Shown here: positions 1-10,458 of the stretch, in pieces | Position numbering within the stretch: position 1 is the first letter of the stretch | Layout: the number at the start of each line of letters is the position of its first letter | IMG/VR virus record: IMGVR_UViG_2585427789_000026 | DNA length: 10,458 nt | Direction: 5' to 3' (one strand) | Origin: a virus | Lineage: Duplodnaviria > Heunggongvirae > Uroviricota > Caudoviricetes | Program-made: the position numbers and the translations under genes | Notes under the pieces: generated by a model | Database searches by the model: none | What the model was told of the DNA's origin: nothing | What the model saw: the letters and a program-made list of their open reading frames with translations, nothing else

Positions 1-1167
1 TCAGGCCTTATGGTGGAAATAATCACTCAGGCGAGAAAACATGCTGCCTTCCCCGACAGATTCCAGGGTAACCAGCGGCCAGTGCGCCACCTGTTTATCA
101 CGGTCGTAAAGTTCAATTTCCCCTACCCGCTGATGGGCGCTAATTGGCGCGGTGAGCTCTTTACCATTAAGGGTATATTTGGCTTTGATATGTGGAATTT
201 CGGCTTTCGGTAGCACCATCCAGAACTCTTGTTCCGTTCCCAGGGCGATATTTTCTTTATCACCATACCAGATGCGTTCCGTACCGACCTTTTTCCTACG
301 GTGCAAAATTTGCACCGTAGTAAAGTTTTGTTGCCCCCAACGCAGTAATTTTTTTGCCTCTTCCTCACGACCTTTTGCGCTGTCAGCACCCATTACCACT
401 GCAATGAGGCGACGCTGCCCGTCTACAGCCGAAGCAATAAGATTAAACCCGGCACCAGAAGTATGGCCCGTTTTCAGGCCGTCAACATTCATGGTCTTAT
501 CCCACAATAACCCGTTACGGTTTTGCTGGGTGATACCGTTCCAGGTGAGGCTTTTCTCACTGTACATATGATAAAACTCGGGCTCGCCGTGGATGATAGC
601 GCGAGAAAGCACGGCTAAATCATAAGCCGAGCTATGCTGGCCAGGTGCATCCAGACCATGCACTGTTTCAAAATGCGTATCCTTGAGATGCAGCTTCTCG
701 GCATAGTTGTTCATCATTTCAACAAACTGCCGTTGCCCACCGGCAATATAGTCAGCCAGAGCAACACACGCGTCATTTCCGGAATCCACAATTAAACCTC
801 GGCTTAAATCACGTACCGATACGCGATCGCCCTCTTTCAAAAACATCAGTGAAGAACCGACAAACACCGGATTATCTTTCGCCCACGCATCACGCCCCAC
901 GGTGACAATATCGTCTGGCGTAATGCGATGACTATCGATAGCGCGATCCACGACATAGCCCGTCATCAGCTTTGTCAGGCTGGCGGGATTGCGCTGTTGA
1001 TGCTCATTACCCGCGGTGAGAATCTGACCGGTGGTGTAATCCATCAATACCCAGGACCCGGCATGAATCTCTGGAGGCTGAGGTGAAAAAGGAATGTTTT
1101 CCGCCGCAAAACCAGACGATAAATTAAAAACGAACAAAGAAGCAGCAATAATAAGACGGCGTTTCAA
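1..1167 (-). CDS. dacD: D-alanyl-D-alanine carboxypeptidase DacD (penicillin-binding protein 6b)
   Basis: Complement ORF with stop at 1-3; translation carries the serine-PBP motifs SLTK (SxxK), SGN and KTG and matches E. coli DacD as recalled. The ORF track extends to a TTG at 1171-1173; the recalled 388-aa protein (MKRRLIIAAS...) starts at the TTG at 1165-1167. Confidence 0.92.
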   Translation of the reverse strand: MKRRLIIAASLFVFNLSSGFAAENIPFSPQPPEIHAGSWVLMDYTTGQILTAGNEHQQRNPASLTKLMTGYVVDRAIDSHRITPDDIVTVGRDAWAKDNPVFVGSSLMFLKEGDRVSVRDLSRGLIVDSGNDACVALADYIAGGQRQFVEMMNNYAEKLHLKDTHFETVHGLDAPGQHSSAYDLAVLSRAIIHGEPEFYHMYSEKSLTWNGITQQNRNGLLWDKTMNVDGLKTGHTSGAGFNLIASAVDGQRRLIAVVMGADSAKGREEEAKKLLRWGQQNFTTVQILHRRKKVGTERIWYGDKENIALGTEQEFWMVLPKAEIPHIKAKYTLNGKELTAPISAHQRVGEIELYDRDKQVAHWPLVTLESVGEGSMFSRLSDYFHHKA

Positions 1168-1375
1168 CAGCAAACCCTCAGGTGTTTCAAATAGCTGTTC
1201 TTTTTACGGAAATACTTATGAACTGGCTGGAATAAAGTGCAAGAAAATGTGACTACTACCTCATTTTTATCTGACATGATCTGTTGCCACTCGCTGCCAA
1301 ATTGTCGCGCTAAAGCTGATTAGCACGGTGATATTTGATACTCTGGCAGACAGCAGAAATAACGGATTTAACCTA

Positions 1376-1438
1376 ATGATGAATGACGGTAAGCAACAAT
1401 CTACCTTTTTGTTTCACGATTACGCGCAACACCCCTGA
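1376..1438 (+). pseudogene. sbcB: Exonuclease I (sbcB) 5' remnant: first 16 codons, then divergent sequence and stop
   Basis: ATGATGAATGACGGTAAGCAACAATCTACCTTTTTGTTTCACGATTAC encodes MMNDGKQQSTFLFHDY, the recalled N-terminus of E. coli ExoI, at the expected distance and divergent orientation from dacD. After about nt 1424 the frame reads AQHP-stop instead of ETFGTHPALD. Confidence 0.6.
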
Positions 1439-1478
1439 GAACCGCCATGAACAAGGGTTTCATGATTTGTGATTTTAG

Positions 1479-1502
1479 TTTGGTACGCAATTTGGTACAC
1501 AA
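1479..1502. repeat. Tandem 12-bp direct repeat TTTGGTAC(G/A)CAA x2 in non-coding junction region
   Basis: Seen directly: tttggtacgcaa (1479-1490) followed immediately by tttggtacacaa (1491-1502), 11 of 12 identical. No credible ORF on either strand across 1439-1907. Confidence 0.5.
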
Positions 1503-1907
1503 CACAATTTTCACTTCAGCGGGTAGTCATCAAACTCACCATAACGAGCATCGTTGATGATGTATGTGATCACCACAAATATCACATCTGGACTAGTTCC
1601 GTCTTCATGCGCAGGTATCTGTTCACGCCTCCCTTTCTGCAAATCCTAAAGATGAGATTTTGGGGTTTTGGGATATCTTTTTATCCTCAGTTCTCTATCC
1701 ATTCTACAAAGCAGTAATGAACCATCACCGTGTGATAGTGAGGCATCCGCTACGTTAAGCGCAGAGAAATGATGCAGTGGTGGTCGGACTGGATTGATGA
1801 AAAGGTGTAGCAACCAACATTGCTATATCTCAGATAGCACAAAGCCTTGCAATCCAGTGCAAAGCTTTGTGTGTCTCAGTTTTGTCTCATAGGTAACTCT
1901 GTGTTAA

Positions 1908-2195
1908 CTACGATGCAAGAATCCATACCAATAAGCATCCGATAATTGGGAAAGAAAAATCCATCAGGCTTGCCACATCCCATGCACGCGGATCAAAACC
2001 GCCCCACCACGGCATGTTAATCCGCTTGCCATGCCCGAACATTTCAATCCAGCGATATTCTGCCTGGGTGTGTTCACGAGCAATGAAGAACGTACAACCG
2101 GCTATCGCACCGTAAGCCCAGTTTCCGGTAAAAAGACCAACCAGTACCTGTGCGACCACAGCGCAAAGTGCGTGATGAATTGGGGTTTTATCCAT
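1908..2195 (-). CDS. Hypothetical small membrane protein (95 aa, two hydrophobic segments), joined stop-to-start to tailspike
   Basis: ORF with ATG at 2193-2195 directly abutting the tailspike TAG stop (2196-2198), giving TAGATG on the coding strand. Two hydrophobic stretches (ALCAVVAQVLVGLFTGNWAYGAIAGCTFFIA and LMDFSFPIIGCLLVWILAS). No family recognised. Confidence 0.55.
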   Translation of the reverse strand: MDKTPIHHALCAVVAQVLVGLFTGNWAYGAIAGCTFFIAREHTQAEYRWIEMFGHGKRINMPWWGGFDPRAWDVASLMDFSFPIIGCLLVWILAS

Positions 2196-4781
2196 CTACT
2201 CTATCTCTTTTGCTTTTTTAATTATCAATTCAAGCTCTGTTAAACGAGACTCAATGCGTTCACACCTTCTTCGCTGGAATGCAGCCTCCAACCACAAACA
2301 TTCATCTGGACGCAATCCCCAACGCTCACCAGCATGTACAACCAGTTCCGTGTCACCAGTATCGTATTCTTCAAAGTATTCGTGAACGATGTCTTCTCCT
2401 TCAGGGGATTTAGCTATAAATGACACCTTGCGCTGTGCCATTACAGGTTGGTACTCATCATCCCATTTATCATGACATAGCAAGCCAAATCTTGTTCCAT
2501 CTATCCCCTTTGCAAGAAACGCATCTCTTACCTGCTGTGCAATTGCTCCGAAATGCCAACGAGCAGTATCCGAACCTTTAGCCTTAATATCGGACAACCA
2601 CTGGTAAACGATAATATTTACGTCACCCCATGCGTCAAGAATTGCATCCTGATCCACCTCCATGATTTCTGAAAGTTGCTCTACTGTCAGTGGCTTTGTT
2701 TTCAATGTCTGGTCTGAAGTATTTATTGCCCCATTAGTTGCATATACTTGCGTCCACCGTTTAGATGATGTCCCACATGATGACGTATTATCTTTATTAG
2801 CACTTATATAGCCATTAACCTCCGCTGACTGACCGATATACGAATATGAAGATGTTGATAAGGGAGATTTAAATATCCATTGAGCATTGGTAAAGTCATA
2901 AATACCGGTATCACCTTTTTCACTAACATGAAAAGTTACATTCCGTAACGTATTCTTTGCATCATAACGGGCGGCTTGTGTTGTTGCCCTCGAAACAGTG
3001 AATCCTTTGTCATCAAGGTTTGCCTGCTCTATGACTTCACCACCAGGCATAATTTTACCAAGGCTTAACAAACCAGAGTTAGTGACAATATCATGGGTTG
3101 AATCAATGATAATACCAGGCTGATTTCTTGATGTTGTTTTTACATGCATTACCTGTTGTGGCATTAATGTGTAAAATGTAGTTTCTCGCCCACTATCACC
3201 ATCTGGTATGCCATTTGTATTCCCCATTACAAGGTCATACCCACCTGCAATCATACGGAAAAACATTGCTTCTGGTTCATATGTAAGATTGCTAACATCT
3301 GGCGTTCCGGTATCATTTGGATCTGCTATTTCATAGGCTCTTCCTGCACCTGCCTGTATTTGCTGCACCCCAAGATAAACACCATCAAGTGTGTACTGAT
3401 GCAAATATTTTCTGGTTGAAGAATATGCAGATCCAGCCTGACAAAAATAAATAGCAGTACCGTCACACGCAACTGTTTGCATATCCCTCACAAAATCGGC
3501 AATTTCAAATTCAAAAGTTGCTTCATTACGATAATCGTAATTGTACGCCTGCGGGTTAATAAATTTGCTGGTATCAAATACTTTTACATAATAGCGAATT
3601 TGATCTGGTGTTGATGGGCTCTCACCAGGGCCAACATAACGTTTTGCTGTAGTAATCAGCCATCGACTCATAGGGTCGGTGCATAAAACATTTACCTGAT
3701 TCTCGTAACCATCTTCCCATATGAGAAAAAACTCTGGTTCAATTTCACCACCATCAGTAGGGGTGAATCTGGTGATATACTTTGCGCGATCCTCTCCTTT
3801 AGCTGTGCCAGCTAACCCCCATATCTGTAACTGGCCTCTTGTGTTACGAAAACCAACGCGCCCTATGGTTAAACCAAGACATTGATGTCCTAATTCTCTA
3901 CTACCTTTAGTCTCCCAAAGAGGAGTTAACTCTTCATTCCCAAACCAATTATAAGCAACAACTTTATTAACTTCGTCACCAGAACTAACGCTGCCACTCA
4001 CATTTACCAAGCAATAAAGAACACTGTCATAATAATCAAGAACAGCACCCTGTATGACAGTATTTTTAATTGTTGCCAGTCGCAACCCTGACTTAACATG
4101 ATTAGGAGTAGAAGGTCTGAAACCTGTATACATCCCCTTTTTTATAGTTTGTATTCTTTTTTCAGTAAAATCAGCATCTGGCAGTAATCGATTCTCTGTG
4201 CGAAAATAGCCATTTATATACTTATTTCCATCAAAAACTTGATCTGTTATATATGTATTACCCCTTAGATCAACAATCCTTCCTGTGATTTGTTTTTCTA
4301 ACTCTTGAAAAGATAATGTGTCATCGGTGATGCCATCACCTTTTGCTCCCCATCCGCGAGGGTCAGCGTCATCACGCCACCGAGACATCTGCAATTCATG
4401 ATATTTTTTAGCACCTTCCGGGTCTTCTAATTGTTGTCTTAATTGGTCAGGATCGTACTTAAGCACATTCGGAAAATAGAACTGCTGCGTACCATATGCA
4501 TCGTAAACAGCCATAGAATGGCCTTGCACGGTAACGAATTTGGAAATCTGTCCGTTGTATACCGGGTATCCAGCAGCATTGATAACGATTGGCTGTGGCA
4601 CCTGAACATAAGTACCATCTTCTCGTTCCAGATATACTGGAATCTGGTTTTCTGGATTTACCGGATCTGTGTCAATCTTACCGATATAAATTTTTCCATT
4701 TGCTACGGTTTTAAAAGAGCTAGCCATTGTGAAGAGTTGCGATGGCATCCCAATTACAACATTTGGGGTTATATCAGGCAT
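2196..4781 (-). CDS. Phage tailspike: P22-type N-terminal head-binding domain, pectate-lyase-like beta-helix central domain, C-terminal intramolecular chaperone (peptidase S74-like) domain
   Basis: N-terminus [17 protein letters not shown]...[27 protein letters not shown]...[15 protein letters not shown]...NVLKYDPDQ aligns closely with the P22 gp9 / HK620 head-binding domain as recalled. Central [12 protein letters not shown] motif is typical of pectate-lyase-superfamily depolymerases. C-terminal ~173 aa begins SDQTLK (Ser codon 2715-2717), fitting the S-x4-K self-cleavage signature of tail-fibre chaperone domains. Start chosen at ATG 4779-4781 (AGGA 8 nt upstream); the ORF-track start at 4874 has no ribosome-binding site. 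Confidence 0.85.
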
Positions 4782-5197
4782 ATTAGTCATCCTGTTTGAA
4801 GATTTAGATATTGAAGAAAACGGAATGACTGCAGACAAAGATGCAATTGTTTTGAAAAATAACCTTCTATTCATTTAAAAACCATGCAACATGAACAAAA
4901 CGATTATTTTACAATACTCAAGAATCTTGATCAACAGGCATATTATTTATGCGCTTAATGCGTCACTTACAAAAATAAAAACAAGTAATACCTTTATTCC
5001 TATCGTCCATGATTTTTATTTTCAAACATTATTAAATAACAATTCCTATTTATAATATCTGTCATTTAATTTGCTCCAGATACAAGGAATCGCCGCAGCA
5101 TGGCTACGGTGAGCATTTGTTACATACCGAAACGGTACGATTGTTGATTTGTACAGTAGGTTTTACGATGCCATTCCACCCATTTGGTGAGGCATTG

Positions 5198-5455
5198 ATG
5201 ATGTACAGCAAATACGATGAGGCGCAGTTCCACTTGAGGCTTACGCACGAGTTGCACGCTAAGATTAAGCAGCGTGCAAAAATGAATAACAGGTCTATCA
5301 ATTCCGAAATTGTGGCTACGATGGAAGAATCACTCTCCAAACCATCACCTGTAAGCGGGTATCGTGATGAAGAAGAGAGGCTGGACTCATTAATCTCGGA
5401 ACGAGTAAAAGAAGTTGCGGCTGATATCCTTAGAAAAGAAAAAACCCGCGATTAA
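5198..5455 (+). CDS. mnt: Mnt-like ribbon-helix-helix repressor
   Basis: Translation MMYSKYDEAQFHLRLTHELHAKIKQRAKMNNRSINSEIVATMEESLSKPSPVSGYRDEEERL... aligns along its length with P22 Mnt as recalled (…FNFRMP…GRSMNSE…SKPSPVTGYRNDAERL…). GGTGAGG lies 5 nt upstream of the ATG at 5198; a second ATG follows at 5201. Confidence 0.8.
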   Translation: MMYSKYDEAQFHLRLTHELHAKIKQRAKMNNRSINSEIVATMEESLSKPSPVSGYRDEEERLDSLISERVKEVAADILRKEKTRD

Positions 5456-5463
5456 GCGGGTTT
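5442..5463. terminator. Bidirectional intrinsic terminator between convergent mnt and the antirepressor operon
   Basis: Perfect 8-bp stem aaacccgc / gcgggttt with 6-nt loop gattaa, flanked by an A-run upstream (a U-tract for the minus-strand transcript) and ttt on the plus strand. It overlaps the mnt stop codon and lies 7 bp from the stop of the 73-aa ORF. Confidence 0.55.
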
Positions 5464-5469
5464 AGTTGG

Positions 5470-5691
5470 TTAGTTATCAAAAAGTCCGTACGTTTCTTCT
5501 TCTTCAGGTGTAAGGGGAAGAATCTCTACTCTATCTATAGATACCTTTTCAATGTACCCATGAGGCCTACTTAAAATTAAAGCTCTCTCATGCCACAGAA
5601 CTCCAAGAATGTGATACCTTCCAGCATCGCCTTTTACCCTGGCTCTTCCTTTGATTCTTGGCGGCATAATGCCATATTTTTTCTTTGCCAT
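5470..5691 (-). CDS. Hypothetical 73-aa protein (basic N-terminus, acidic C-terminus), translationally coupled to the upstream antirepressor
   Basis: Its ATG (5689-5691) overlaps the TAA stop of the upstream gene (5691-5693) as TAATG; it ends just before the bidirectional terminator. No family recognised. Confidence 0.5.
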   Translation of the reverse strand: MAKKKYGIMPPRIKGRARVKGDAGRYHILGVLWHERALILSRPHGYIEKVSIDRVEILPLTPEEEETYGLFDN

Positions 5692-6416
5692 TATGCAACA
5701 TTACTCCCATGAATAAGGTGTTGTAGTGCTTTAACACCTTCCTCATTGTAGCGGAACGCTTCCACCTGTTTGCTGGAATGCGCAGATTTATCCAGGAAGA
5801 ACTTCCCGTACTGCTCAGTTTTGAGGTTGTTTGCGTTAGCAATGCGACCAATCTTGTTGGCCGTTACTCCAAGCTGCTCTGCAACCTCCCCTGCTGAGTA
5901 GTAATGCTCTTCTATTGCCGGAAGAGGTATTGCATTAAAACCAACGAGCGGGTTGATTATACTTGCTGCCGCTGTCTGCTTTGCCTCCGGCGCAAGATTT
6001 GGCATCAGATCGAACAGATTGGTAACAGCTTCAACCGTCATTTTCAATGTTCGCGCTTGACGATACTCAACAAGTCCACTCGCTGATTTACCGCTTTTAA
6101 TGTGCGCTTCCTGCATACTTTCAAGTTTGTCTACAAGTGTTCGGCGAACTGCTTTAGATTCGCGAGCAGCAACACGAAGCGCCTGCTTGATAGTCATGGA
6201 GATAACATCAATGTCAGCCCCGTTTTTCCGACCTACACTTTTTGTGTAGGTCTCGCCTTCCAATTCATCCTCAATTTTCTCGATGAATTTGTTGTTACGT
6301 ACTGATGGCTCTCCACATAACTTGCGAGCTTCATTAACCATCATCAGAAGACTTTGGCTGTCAATGGTTTTATCCGTGACAACGGATCCGATGTTTGCTA
6401 CATTCTTAAAAGTCAT
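5691..6416 (-). CDS. Phage antirepressor / regulatory protein, Rha-like N-terminus with KilA-C (ANT) C-terminal domain
   Basis: C-terminal YYSAGEVAEQLGVTANKIGRIANANNLKTEQYGKFF...FRYNEEGVKAL fits the KilA-C antirepressor domain pattern; N-terminal ...DSQSLLMMVNEARKL...VRNNKFIEKIE resembles Rha/ORF6N. Start chosen at ATG 6414-6416 (MTFKN..., AAGGA about 7 nt upstream) rather than the ORF-track TTG at 6503. Confidence 0.65.
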   Translation of the reverse strand: MTFKNVANIGSVVTDKTIDSQSLLMMVNEARKLCGEPSVRNNKFIEKIEDELEGETYTKSVGRKNGADIDVISMTIKQALRVAARESKAVRRTLVDKLESMQEAHIKSGKSASGLVEYRQARTLKMTVEAVTNLFDLMPNLAPEAKQTAAASIINPLVGFNAIPLPAIEEHYYSAGEVAEQLGVTANKIGRIANANNLKTEQYGKFFLDKSAHSSKQVEAFRYNEEGVKALQHLIHGSNVA

Positions 6417-6485
6417 TAGGCATTCCTTATGTGGTAGTAAGGGTGTGACATAGGCCGCCAGCAGCACACTGGCGGTTTTCTTTTG
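6411..6485 (+). ncRNA. Putative sar-like antisense RNA covering the start codon and ribosome-binding site of the Rha/KilA-C antirepressor
   Basis: Candidate promoter GTGACA (6376-6381), 17-bp spacer, TACATT (6399-6404) would start transcription near 6411 and end at the terminator above, about 70 nt. The geometry mirrors the P22 sar antisense RNA in the arc-ant region. Confidence 0.35.
6454..6485 (+). terminator. Plus-strand intrinsic terminator in the intercistronic region between the two antirepressor genes
   Basis: Stem ccgccag (6455-6461) / ctggcgg (6469-6475), 7-nt loop, followed on the plus strand by ttttcttttg (6476-6485). The minus-strand side has no U-tract. Confidence 0.55.
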
Positions 6486-6503
6486 CGCAGTCCGGCGCAC
6501 CAA

Positions 6504-7142
6504 TCAATGAATCCATTCCTCGCCGCGAAGTTTTGCCAGCATTGGCTGAGCGTTCTTTACGACAAAATTGTTGGTATCAAGATTCTTCATTTCACGAAGA
6601 AGTGATTTCTTGGTTTCTTCTGACATGTAGCGAGTCTCATATGCAATATCGTAAATCCTTCCTGAAAGCTCAGAACCAATTTGCTTCATTCCTGGGTAGA
6701 TGTGTTTGCACATTTGTTGACTCTTCTCCATCCACAATTGTAAGTAGCAGAGATTAACCAGCTCTTCGTCAGTGAACTGTTTTGCAATCGGTGAGCATTC
6801 TGCCTGCCGATCCAAAATATCCAGCACCCAGCGGCGGAACTCTTTGGCCTTGGGCGTAGAAGCAAACATCGCCACCAAGTGAGCGCCTCGGAGTGAGTAA
6901 ACTCTGACCGATTTGTTACGTAAGCTATTGTTTATTCCGTTGACCTTCATATTGAGGGTCAATGACATTGAGTCGGAAAATTCGTCAGCATTACGGGCAT
7001 AAATTTGGCTGATGGCATCAGTTTTTTTATAGCCGAGAGCCTTAGCTAGTTCGGTGGAGGTAAACCAGATAGACCCGCCCTCTGTTACAGGGTTAAAAGT
7101 GAATCCTTGGAAGTTATAATCTGATTTTGCTACAATATTCAT
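6504..7142 (-). CDS. Phage antirepressor with Bro-N / AntA-type N-terminal domain
   Basis: N-terminal ...FQGFTFNPVTEGGSIWFTSTELAKALGY...VYSLRGAHLVAMFASTPKAKEFRRWVLDILD matches the Bro-N / antirepressor N-domain pattern. Start chosen at ATG 7140-7142 (MNIVAKSDYNFQ, AAGGAAA 6 nt upstream), downstream of the arc stop; the ORF-track start at 7247 overlaps arc. Confidence 0.65.
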   Translation of the reverse strand: MNIVAKSDYNFQGFTFNPVTEGGSIWFTSTELAKALGYKKTDAISQIYARNADEFSDSMSLTLNMKVNGINNSLRNKSVRVYSLRGAHLVAMFASTPKAKEFRRWVLDILDRQAECSPIAKQFTDEELVNLCYLQLWMEKSQQMCKHIYPGMKQIGSELSGRIYDIAYETRYMSEETKKSLLREMKNLDTNNFVVKNAQPMLAKLRGEEWIH

Positions 7143-7220
7143 GTTAGTTTCCTTGAGTACGGTTACTGACATAGAGGCCCGGTTTGTGTTCGCGCACTGC
7201 CGGGCTTCACTATTTTTATT
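7143..7220 (+). ncRNA. Putative second sar-like antisense RNA covering the ribosome-binding site of the Bro-N antirepressor
   Basis: Candidate promoter TTGGAA (7107-7112), 18-bp spacer, TACAAT (7131-7136) would start transcription at about 7143, beside the Bro-N start codon, and run about 70 nt to the hairpin and T-tract at 7174-7220. Same geometry as the 6411-6485 unit. Confidence 0.3.
7174..7220 (+). terminator. Plus-strand terminator-like hairpin with T-rich tail at the arc 3' end, upstream of the Bro-N gene
   Basis: GC stem gcccgg (7177-7182) / ccgggc (7200-7205) with extension, followed on the plus strand by ttcactatttttatt. The minus-strand side has no U-tract. Confidence 0.4.
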
Positions 7221-7389
7221 GGATGACAACATCGCCCTTTGCCTCAAGTTTCATTAATAACTCCATTCGATAAGCTATCTCTGCCTGAATTGACCTATGG
7301 CATCTTTTTGCTGATTCGCGGATATGTGAATCAACCTTTTCTGTAAAACGAACCTGACGCGGCTTGATGGAAGATATCTTTTCAGTCAT
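7216..7389 (-). CDS. arc: Arc-like ribbon-helix-helix repressor (57 aa; not in the supplied ORF track)
   Basis: Hand translation of the complement strand: MTEKISSIKPRQVRFTEKVDSHIRESAKRCHRSIQAEIAYRMELLMKLEAKGDVVIQ-stop. It aligns with P22 Arc as recalled (…PQFNLRWPREVLDLVRKVAEENGRSVNSEIYQRVMESF…). AGGAG lies 6 nt upstream of the ATG at 7387-7389. Confidence 0.7.
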   Translation of the reverse strand: MTEKISSIKPRQVRFTEKVDSHIRESAKRCHRSIQAEIAYRMELLMKLEAKGDVVIQ

Positions 7390-7435
7390 TATGCACTCCT
7401 GTTTTTGAAAAACTCATAATCTCACTTTTTGTAGT

Positions 7436-7467
7436 TTGATTATTCACTCACACTCAGTATGAGTCAA
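7436..7467. promoter_or_regulatory. Overlapping divergent promoters with candidate operator (palindrome ACTCA-gta-TGAGT plus ACTCA repeats) between arc and the CI-like gene
   Basis: Minus strand: TTGACT (complement of 7462-7467), 17 bp, AATAAT (complement of 7439-7444), reading into arc. Plus strand: TTGATT (7436-7441), about 16 bp, TATGAG, a weaker promoter reading into the CI-like gene. The 13-bp palindrome at 7452-7464 overlaps both; further ACTCA half-sites at 7412 and 7445. Confidence 0.4.
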
Positions 7468-7488
7468 TGAATTTTTTATGGTGAACTA

Positions 7489-8130
7489 ATGAATTTTGAC
7501 GATCAATTCCCATCAAGAGTATCTCTGGCAAGACAGTCCAGGGGTATGACGCAGGCGCAGTTGTCAAAATTAGCTGGTGTTGTTCAACGTCAAATAGCTG
7601 CATACGAGGGTGGTGAGGCTAAACCACGGCTTCGGGTATTGCAGGCATTAGCCAACGCATTAGGTACTACGGCTGAGTGGTTAGCTCTAGGTGAAGGTCA
7701 GGGTCCGGGAACAAAAAACGTCATGCCTGACGTTCTGGTAAAGCAAATACCAATTCTCAAACTAGATGAAGTTATGCATTACCTAAACACAGGTGAACAT
7801 TCATCGTCTAGATTTCATCCTGCAATATACAATGTTGGTGACTCTGCATTTGCATTGACTATTGAAGGTGAAGCTATGACTACAAGTTCAGGTATTAGCT
7901 TTCCCAGAGGATCGGTTGTCACGTTCAGCCCTCTAGTAAAAGCTAAAAGCAAAGATTATGTAATAGCATCATTGGATAAAGAGCAAATATTGAGCTTCAA
8001 ACAGGTTTACATTGGTGAAATAGAGACAAACCTAGTATCCCTAAACCCAATGTATCCTAATATTCTTGTTAGAAATGAAGATGTTAGTATTTTGGCAACC
8101 GCAGTTTACCTTGAAATCCCGTTGCTTTGA
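7489..8130 (+). CDS. CI-like repressor (XRE-type HTH plus LexA/S24-like C-terminal domain) with catalytic Ser and cleavage site replaced
   Basis: N-terminal HTH (…GMTQAQLSKLAGVVQRQIAAYEGG…); C-terminal GDSAFALTIEGEAM…SFPRG…LSFKQV…LNPMYP aligns with lambda CI GDSAFWLEVEGNSM…SFPDG…FTFKKL…LNPQYP. The G-x-S-M nucleophile position reads Ala (GCT 7873-7875) and the Ala-Gly scissile position reads Asp-Glu. Confidence 0.8.
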   Translation: MNFDDQFPSRVSLARQSRGMTQAQLSKLAGVVQRQIAAYEGGEAKPRLRVLQALANALGTTAEWLALGEGQGPGTKNVMPDVLVKQIPILKLDEVMHYLNTGEHSSSRFHPAIYNVGDSAFALTIEGEAMTTSSGISFPRGSVVTFSPLVKAKSKDYVIASLDKEQILSFKQVYIGEIETNLVSLNPMYPNILVRNEDVSILATAVYLEIPLL

Positions 8131-8190
8131 TATCCTTTAGGAGGCGACACATTATCATCTGGTATCCTGCTCAAAACTAAGGAGGTTGGT

Positions 8191-8379
8191 GTGAAGAAAA
8201 AATTTGTAAACGTTGCAAAGTGCGCAATTTTTATATTTTTTATGACCTTTTACGGATTTAGTGCCGGAGAAGGTTTCGATCGTGATGCCAATGCATTCAG
8301 TTTCTTTTGTCTGTCTATAGTGGTCATAATTGTATGGGTGGAATTAAAGCAAACATTGTTTCATGTGCTAAGGAAATAA
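8191..8379 (+). CDS. Hypothetical small membrane protein (62 aa) downstream of the CI-like repressor
   Basis: GTG start 5 nt after a strong TAAGGAGG (8178-8185). Lys-rich N-terminus followed by two hydrophobic segments. Same strand as the CI-like gene, 60 bp downstream. Confidence 0.5.
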   Translation: MKKKFVNVAKCAIFIFFMTFYGFSAGEGFDRDANAFSFFCLSIVVIIVWVELKQTLFHVLRK

Positions 8380-8396
8380 CCATCCATGGCATTTAG

Positions 8397-8931
8397 TCAC
8401 TGCTGTGTTGCCTCAGTGGCAAGCAGCGGTCTGATGGCATTTGCAGCGTTACTTAATGCTCTTTCATAGGCTGGCGTTCCTGCTTTGGTGTTTGCCAGAC
8501 GTAAGAGCGCATTCCTGGCCATAGGGCTTTCATAAACCCTCGACATAAGGCCAATCCCTGTTTCCCCAGCCAATAGCGCGCCTCCGGTTTTTAGGTTACC
8601 AATAACCCTTACCAAAGGCGCGAGTGTCATGCCAGTCTTCGTCACAACATTAGCCTCAGATGCTCTTTTGGTAGCATCGAGAATAGATAACATCCCCTCT
8701 ATCTCTTTTCCGTTCTTCCCACCAAATACAGTTTTAAACACCTGACCATTTGCTTGTTTTTGCAGCTTGCCAAGCTCGGTCATCATTTTCTGAGGGCTGT
8801 CACCTACCTTGTCAGCTATTTTGCTGATATATGCCGCCCTTAGCATGTCTTTACCTTTTTGATCGAGTTTCCCGTACAATCGAGCTATATCTGACCCATA
8901 TTGTCCATACACAATGGTATTTACAGCCTCG
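8397..8931 (-). pseudogene. 3' fragment of a phage late gene (putative DNA-ejection / internal virion protein, gp16-like by position), truncated by IS66 insertion
   Basis: The reading frame stays open upstream of the listed GTG (8912) straight into the IS66 end, with no convincing ribosome-binding site. The protein is low-complexity and Ala/Gly/Lys-rich. The gp16 assignment rests only on position relative to P22 gene order. Confidence 0.4.
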
Positions 8932-10458
8932 GTAAGCGGCTCGCCAGAACCGTATTGATATTTACTGAGAGGTCAGATCAACTTTCCAGGGCAACAGATC
9001 GCGTACCCGGTTTGCCGGCCAATCCTGGATATGCTCAATGACGTAACGCAGCCATTTTTCTGGTTCCACATTGTTCAGACGGCATGTGCCGATCAGCGAG
9101 TACAACACCGCCGCATGTTCGCCACCGCTGTCGGAACCCGCGAACAGCCAGTTTTTCCGGCCTACGGCCACTCCCCGTAAGGCGTTCTCTGCGATGTTGT
9201 TGTCGATTTCCACCCAGCCATTACTGCAGTACACGTTCAGGCCATCCCACTGTTTCAGCAGGTATGCGAACGCTTTTGCCGTATCCGAGTGACGCGACAG
9301 TGTTTTCATCTGAGTCTGTATCCAGTCATACAGTGACTGCATCAGTGGCGCGGCTCTGGCTTTTCTTGCCGCCAGACGCTGTTCTGCTGAACATCCCCGG
9401 ACTTCTGCCTCGATGGCATACAGTTCACCGATACGCTGCAGGGCTTCCGTGGTGATGTCGGTGGGCACTCTTGCATGCACATCGTGGATTTTTCTCCGGG
9501 CATGAGCCATACACGCGGCTTCCGTTATTCTGCCGGATTCGTATAACACCCGGTAACCACCGTAAGCATCGGCCTGAAGCACACCGCTGTAACCGGCCAG
9601 ATGATTTTGTGGATGGATACCTTTCCGGTCCGGTGAGTACGCGAACCAGACCGCCGGGGGCATTTCCGAACCGGCGTTACGGTCATCACGGACGTAGACC
9701 CACAGCCGGGCGGTCCGGGTTTTACCGCTGCCCGGCTCCTGGACCGGGACGGGGATATCATCAGCATGGACTTTACCGGGCATCAGCACATACTGGCGCA
9801 GGACGTCATACAGCGGCTCCAGCAGTTCAGCAACGGCACCTGTCCAGCGCCCCAGCGTGGCGCGGCTCAGCTCCACGCCCTGGCGACGGTATATTTCTGA
9901 CTGGCGGTATAACGGCAGATGGTCTGCATATTTCCCGGTAACAACATGGGCCAGAAGCCCCGCTCCGGCATAACTGCGTGCAATGGGTTTTGAAGGTACT
10001 GTTGCCTGCACGATATGGTCGCACCGACAACAGGCCAGTTTCGGACGTTGTGTTTCGATAACCTTAAAGGCGCTGCTGATAAGCTCCAGTTGCTCTGACA
10101 CATCACACCCCAGAGGACTGAGGTCACCACCACAGGCCGGGCAGCATTCCTCTTCCGGCCGGATGACCCGGGTTTCACGGGGAAGTGAGGCCGGTAACGG
10201 TTTACGGGCTGAAGACTGGCGCAGGGCGGATGGCAGTACCGGGTCATATTGCTCACCCAGCGTTTCCGCCATTTCTTCCTGAAGTGCGCTGATTCGCTCC
10301 TGTGCTTCCTGTATCTGCCGTTCGGTTTTAGCGCGAAGTTTTTCTGAGCTTTTACCGAACTGCATGCGCTGCAGTTTCGCAACCAGCGCCTTCAGCCGGT
10401 TGATTTCGGAAGCATAAGCCGCCACCCGCTGTGAGAGCAGGCGGTTGTATTTCGCCAT
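8932..10458 (-). mobile_element. IS66-family insertion sequence, right end, continuing beyond the window
   Basis: GC-rich block beginning GTAAGCGGC at 8932, consistent with the GTAA terminus typical of IS66-family inverted repeats as recalled, 30 bp from the transposase stop. Sharp composition change from the AT-rich phage sequence. Confidence 0.75.
8962..10458 (-). CDS. tnpC: IS66-family transposase (TnpC/orf3), N-terminally truncated by the window edge
   Basis: 498-aa ORF ending ...[11 protein letters not shown], with leucine-zipper-like N-region, CxxC...CxC zinc motif (CPACGG...CCRCDH) and a conserved catalytic core. The M at 10458 corresponds to an internal position in full-length IS66 TnpC as recalled, so the true start lies outside the window. 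Confidence 0.9.

Follow-up and report, generated by a model that had tools for sequence, protein, structure and literature searches.

Host-phage junction in sbcB

The window (the whole stretch of DNA analysed, 10,458 nucleotides of IMG/VR record IMGVR_UViG_2585427789_000026) begins in host DNA. The host gene flanking the junction, dacD (D-Ala-D-Ala carboxypeptidase; 1–1167, minus strand), is annotated in both Escherichia coli AST19 and K-12 over identical sequence, and is followed by the native dacD-sbcB intergenic region (208 bp; 1168–1375), which by alignment is identical to that of K-12. The native sbcB promoter presumably still lies within 1168–1375 and now drives a stub alone. The host-derived 5’ end of sbcB consists of 16 codons and one further nucleotide (1376–1424, plus strand), and its translation, MMNDGKQQSTFLFHDY, equals the N-terminus of K-12 SbcB.

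Alignment to the K-12 locus, which is unoccupied, shows identity from the intergenic region to nucleotide 1424, the first base of sbcB codon 17, and unrelated sequence from 1425 onward, where four phage codons (AQHP) carry the frame to a TGA at 1436–1438 and complete the stub ORF (1376–1438, plus strand). Among 5,426 complete E. coli genomes, those with an unoccupied locus match window positions 1300–1890 only as far as 1424 (query position 125; 99–100% identity), and the breakpoint is therefore exact and does not reflect a chance resemblance. The first-pass annotation, made from the letters of the window alone, had described a divergent dacD-sbcB arrangement, an sbcB gene cut after codon 16 at the prophage boundary and a frame that stops four codons later, and all of this agrees with the comparison to K-12. 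The alignment to an intact sbcB locus that it had proposed as a check places the break at 1424/1425, and the 16-codon match, which it had allowed might be mistaken, is genuine.

The next phage ORF, on the minus strand, ends at 1908, leaving ~480 bp between it and the stub. This interval had been described as non-coding, of which the length was accurate and the non-coding character was not, as two candidate arm-type repeats, the remains of a umuD-like gene and a hairpin lie within it. The two direct repeats, TTTGGTACGC (1479–1488, plus strand) and TTTGGTACAC (1491–1500, plus strand), belong to a repeat family in the attP of phage mEp234, where two of the five copies fall on the side that corresponds to the window and the other three on the side of int. 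The integrase carries an Arm-DNA-bind_3 domain, and the repeats are candidate binding sites for this arm-binding domain, with a layout that fits the predicted binding.

The umuD-like (S24 peptidase) remnant (~1532–1762, minus strand) lacks its N-terminal half and is broken by an in-frame stop at 1646–1648. The assignment was made because the remnant matches UmuD-like PHROG families (E = 6e-17 and 8e-13) and because PGAP annotates a HumD-family pseudogene at this position in AST19; a Pfam search of the remnant returned no match, and a BLASTP comparison with a UmuD sequence of E. coli showed no similarity. Between the remnant and the first phage ORF lies a conserved hairpin with a 14-bp stem (1832–1876), also present in mEp234, with predicted folding energies of −21.3 and −21.6 kcal/mol and z-scores of −3.8 and −4.3 on the two strands. 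The hairpin may be a terminator, though it has no canonical U-tract and was not called by a terminator scan of window 1100–2250, while an Rfam scan of window 1100–2300 returned no family.

A defective P22-like prophage

The phage ORF nearest the junction that is still intact (1908–2195, minus strand; 95 aa) matches phrog_1443 (E = 1e-54) and is annotated as a hypothetical protein. It adjoins a P22-type tailspike (2196–4781, minus strand; PGAP ‘phage tailspike protein’) with the Pfam domains Head_binding (E = 4.5e-61) and Peptidase_S74 (E = 4.5e-10). The C-terminal S74 domain of the tailspike is an intramolecular chaperone. The central, receptor-binding part of the protein had no Pfam match, and an endosialidase N-terminal extension scored 24.2 bits, just under the cut-off of 26.3 bits. 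The prophage also encodes an antirepressor (Bro-N and P22_AR_C), an Arc-family protein and annotated DNA transfer proteins, including an ejection protein with a Phage_P22_gp16 domain. The tailspike, the ant/arc-type region and the gp16-type protein follow the P22 gene order beside att, which places the prophage among the P22-like (Lederbergvirus-type) phages.

A repressor with HTH and S24-peptidase (LexA/CI-like) domains (7489–8130, plus strand) is flanked by the antirepressor region on one side and the gp16-like gene on the other, which we take to be the position of sieA/mnt in P22 gene order, and it might make control of the antirepressor SOS-cleavable. The gp16-type DNA-transfer gene is interrupted by an IS66-family element (window 8933–10458; transposase ORF 8962–10458, minus strand), leaving a truncated gp16-like ORF (8397–8912, minus strand).

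Eight complete E. coli genomes that are 100% identical to window positions 1–8932 were used as proxies for the remainder of the prophage, and its far end was read in two of them, AST19 and E100341. All eight lack the IS66 element at this site, which marks it as an insertion specific to this strain, made in a prophage that was already defective. The AST19 prophage is ~16.2 kb long (L001 20275–36448, corresponding to the window from 1425 onward), in the relatives it is ~16–17 kb and in E100341 it is ~1.3 kb longer than in AST19. In AST19 a DNA-transfer gene and a 3’-5’ exonuclease gene, both truncated, directly abut each other, and the head, lysis and replication genes are consequently gone, while int and a small HTH (Xis-like) gene are intact.

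Attachment core and phage arm

The 13 bp that end at the breakpoint, TTTCACGATTACG (1412–1424), have a single exact match in the window and lie inside sbcB codons 13–17, within the coding sequence of the FLFHDYETFG motif, encoding F-H-D-Y and the first base of E. The same 13 bp are annotated in the record of mEp234 as attP (“prophage attachment site (type 2851)”) and in the record of prophage 1717 as “duplication due to insertion of stx2c phage”. The attP core published for phages Sf101 and 2851, both of which integrate into sbcB, is CGTAATCGTGAAA, the reverse complement of TTTCACGATTACG (PMC4159516).

On the phage side of the core, positions 1425–1890 correspond by homology to the arm of a 2851-type att module that is distal to int, and window 1401–1890 is 91–95% identical to att-adjacent DNA of EC.P3, E212, mEp234, 1717, Sf101 and 2851. 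The attP of the free phage mEp234 reads ...ATGACAGACACAGATAAACAACCTACCTTCCTC-TTTCACGATTACG-CGCAATACCCCTGA..., in which a surrogate start (see below), the core and the arm seen in the window are contiguous. At the int-side junction, phage matches end exactly at the last base of the core. The cognate integrase adjoins the body of sbcB in AST19 and E100341, lies outside the window for this strain, and is in the proxy genome 99.5% identical to Sf101 Int and 98.5% identical to HK544 Int. With the core at the host-phage junction and a homologous phage-side flank, the junction is the already known attachment site of a known int/att module, and the reading of the break as a site-specific integration stands, its core being the published attP of 2851 and Sf101.

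[quoted passage not shown] This applies relative to the P22-like phages that target tRNA genes, but the arrangement as such has been documented: the P22-like Sf101 uses this core in sbcB (PMC4159516), and sbcB is a standard site of Stx2c phages and belongs to the four classical insertion sites of Stx prophages in O157, where it is occupied in 26.9% of 346 strains (PMC8309913). The 2851-type cassette is a mosaic module common to lambda-like, Stx-converting and P22-like phages, and because this int/att cassette is shared mosaically, a P22-like phage can be found in a protein-coding gene and not in a tRNA gene.

Reconstituted sbcB in near-identical genomes

The AST19 prophage has at its other end a tyrosine integrase, followed by a 181-bp spacer and then by a 1,425-nt sbcB that carries no annotation flag. 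The encoded protein is 474 aa long and starts with MTDTDKQPTFLFHDY followed by ETFGTHPALD..., and the far end of E100341 is the same, with int beside an intact 474-aa sbcB. The first 15 codons of this hybrid gene (MTDTDKQPTFLFHDY) come from the phage arm beside int, and in free mEp234 these 15 surrogate codons abut the core. An intact 474-aa hybrid ORF was present in all seven occupied genomes sampled, which included O157:H7 and ETEC strains, and the solved structures of E. coli ExoI align with the hybrid protein over its full length. The int-hybrid sbcB junction occurs in 582 of the 5,426 complete E. coli genomes (~10%) and the stub junction in 492, and RefSeq already annotates the hybrid gene as sbcB. 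The target gene thus receives from the element a start codon in frame and new first codons, and its old 5’ end stays behind as a stub at the far boundary.

From the window alone it had been predicted that the host lacks ExoI, unless the rest of sbcB were reconstituted at the other end of the prophage. The caveat matches the far ends of AST19 and E100341, and the inspection of the other prophage end that had been suggested, carried out in these two genomes, found the remaining sbcB together with the core. The prediction itself is very probably wrong, with an intact 474-aa sbcB beside the integrase in both genomes and a full-length coding sequence in these and in the seven sampled occupied genomes. 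The recBC-suppressor-like state that had been attached to the prediction is likewise not supported; established genetics distinguishes a null sbcB/xonA allele from sbcB15, the classical suppressor allele.

Taken together, the window most probably (at roughly 0.87) spans the int-distal boundary of a P22-like, defective prophage whose integration rebuilds sbcB at the far end. Under this explanation, the tyrosine integrase would have recombined the phage into the 13-bp core in sbcB codons 13–17, and the original promoter and first 16 codons would have stayed behind as the 20-codon stub. The int-side arm would have brought an in-frame ATG and the 15 surrogate codons, and as these abut the core, integration would fuse them to sbcB from codon 17 onward, restoring a full-length gene for a 474-aa exonuclease I next to int. 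The strain’s own far end is expected to be the same as in the near-identical genomes, and the hybrid gene would be transcribed from phage-supplied DNA. Judged from these sequences, the host most likely still makes exonuclease I.

When one junction is read alone, it suggests a lost DNA-repair gene, while the phage carries a replacement 5’ end, and sbcB-occupied genomes should therefore not be scored as ExoI-deficient. This concerns roughly a tenth of complete E. coli genomes, many Stx2c-positive O157 strains among them. In the literature searched, which did not extend to the original description of 2851, there was no account of sbcB reconstitution and there were no expression or activity data for hybrid sbcB, and the papers naming sbcB as an insertion site do not discuss rebuilding of the ORF.

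Expected tolerance of 5’ replacement, and surrogate starts in other lineages

The FLFHDYETFG motif is present in 76 of 79 Enterobacteriaceae species representatives, and the residues that precede it differ across the 79 in both sequence and length. Natural SbcB N-termini include MMNDGKQQS, MNDGKQQPG, MTDDKQQPT, VSDSAARPT and MQDSANQPG, a range within which the surrogate MTDTDKQPT falls, nearest to the Citrobacter and Salmonella types. The hybrid differs from the native protein only in the naturally hypervariable first ~9 residues, and the core-encoded FHDYE, which we take to be the first acidic catalytic motif of ExoI (a DEDDh exonuclease), is unchanged.

A second integrase lineage, 59–61% identical to the 2851-type Int, was found beside sbcB at the same codons in Kluyvera sichuanensis (L038), Kosakonia oryziphila (L073) and one mislabelled genome (L057), at ~1127–2530 of each locus. 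This lineage has arm repeats of its own (TGTACTC-like) and a surrogate that begins with GTG (MT[V/D]KN..IQ.TFLFHDY) and spans 17 codons in frame, as against 15, giving an intact SbcB ORF of 476 aa. In Intestinirhabdus alba (L083, 1441–2560), all that remains is a fragment of int and such a surrogate, located next to an unrelated gene, with an intact sbcB of 476 aa. When the int-side arms of the two lineages were aligned, the positions of the arm repeats matched, and no convincing shared promoter was found in the aligned arms.

A third type of surrogate was considered for one locus (L026) and rejected, as the DNA upstream retains the native 5’ end of E. coli, altered by small frame-shifting changes that were tentatively attributed to assembly errors. 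Separately, the native sbcB 5’ end of Shigella flexneri SFBU0723 (L014, ~2440–2560) appears to be frameshifted (NDE*REV...LLFHDY), either as a true pseudogene or through an assembly error.

Expression of the hybrid gene and alternative explanations

Whether the rebuilt ORF is expressed bears on the explanation that retains most weight among the alternatives, in which the hybrid is intact but silent or strongly mis-expressed and the host is functionally ExoI-deficient. The prophage does separate the native promoter region (1168–1375) from the body of the gene, and a scan of the 181-bp int-sbcB’ spacer detected no sigma-70 consensus promoter ahead of the surrogate start; however, the promoter scan was insensitive, since over window 1100–2250 it also missed the native sbcB promoter. 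Moreover, the frame and the start are maintained in two integrase lineages with only 59–61% identity, despite surrogates of 15 and 17 codons, and one species that has lost the prophage still has the surrogate start together with an intact ORF. Because diverged att modules all keep a start in frame and the surrogate outlasts the prophage, we infer that the rebuilt sbcB is under selection and hence expressed. In the comparable dusA-specific elements, putative promoters were found after integration (PMC4482086), and a silent hybrid is, on this evidence, unlikely.

Still less probable is a rearrangement associated with the IS66 element that removed or displaced the int-side junction in this strain, leaving sbcB truly truncated. 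The transposase from 8933 interrupts the gp16-like gene, the element is missing in all eight near-identical genomes, and a search for proteins exactly matching the truncated gp16-like ORF recovered only contigs of 3.5–4 kb that end at the IS66. Against this, a simple insertion is the commonest outcome for an IS, the window bears no sign of a deletion, and all of the relatives retain the junction. That integration simply inactivates sbcB and renders the host ExoI-null, as the lone 20-codon stub at this end of the prophage and the ‘disruption’ or occupancy of sbcB in the PCR-typing literature (PMC8309913) would have it, is highly improbable given the in-frame start and 15 codons on the phage arm, the preserved catalytic motif and the intact hybrid ORFs of the near-identical and the seven sampled occupied genomes.

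If sbcB is rebuilt and transcribed from phage-supplied DNA, a more speculative and, at present, doubtful extension is that ExoI in lysogens comes from a phage promoter in the 181-bp spacer, with the level of ExoI rewired and possibly coupled to the state of the prophage. The spacer is shared with the divergent int and lies beside candidate Int arm-type sites, and the occurrence of at least two lineages on the same ExoI catalytic-motif codons, each with an in-frame surrogate, would fit selection on such coupling. Were this true, the coupling of ExoI could affect processes that sense 3’ single-stranded DNA ends, recombination and some anti-phage reverse-transcriptase systems among them; the title of a 2026 bioRxiv preprint links SbcB to the activation of DRT10.

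Relationship to known integration systems

The element shares its 13-bp core and its breakpoint with the system of phage 2851, prophage 1717, mEp234, HK544 and HK140, to which its arm is 91–95% identical. Unlike the 2851-type carriers, which are lambda-like siphoviruses or Stx-converting phages, it is a defective P22-like prophage with no stx in the part seen. Similar in architecture is Sf101, likewise P22-like, with att by the tailspike end, the same core and an Int 99.5% identical to that of the proxy genome, but whereas Sf101 is intact, inducible and equipped with the O-antigen acetylase gene oacB, the element described here is a remnant with a different tailspike and an IS66 insertion.

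The attachment site resembles lambda attP in that a short core lies between repeat-bearing arms (three direct copies beside int, two opposite) and Int has an arm-binding domain, and differs from it in the repeat (TTTGGTAC[A/G]C), the core and the target, the arm sites here being candidates. Phage 21 and e14, which integrate into icd, keep that gene functional with a phage-borne, diverged copy of the gene end. In contrast to sbcB, icd is targeted at its 3’ end, so that neither a promoter nor a start codon is needed from the phage. The dusA-specific integrase islands and prophages (Farrugia et al. 2015, PMC4482086) differ from the sbcB element in target gene and core but are alike in that the element supplies a new 5’ end, the original 5’ end of the target being left as the outer boundary of the element. 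The parallel extends to the choice of site: the element integrates where the codons of its target gene are most conserved, and what it replaces is the variable start.
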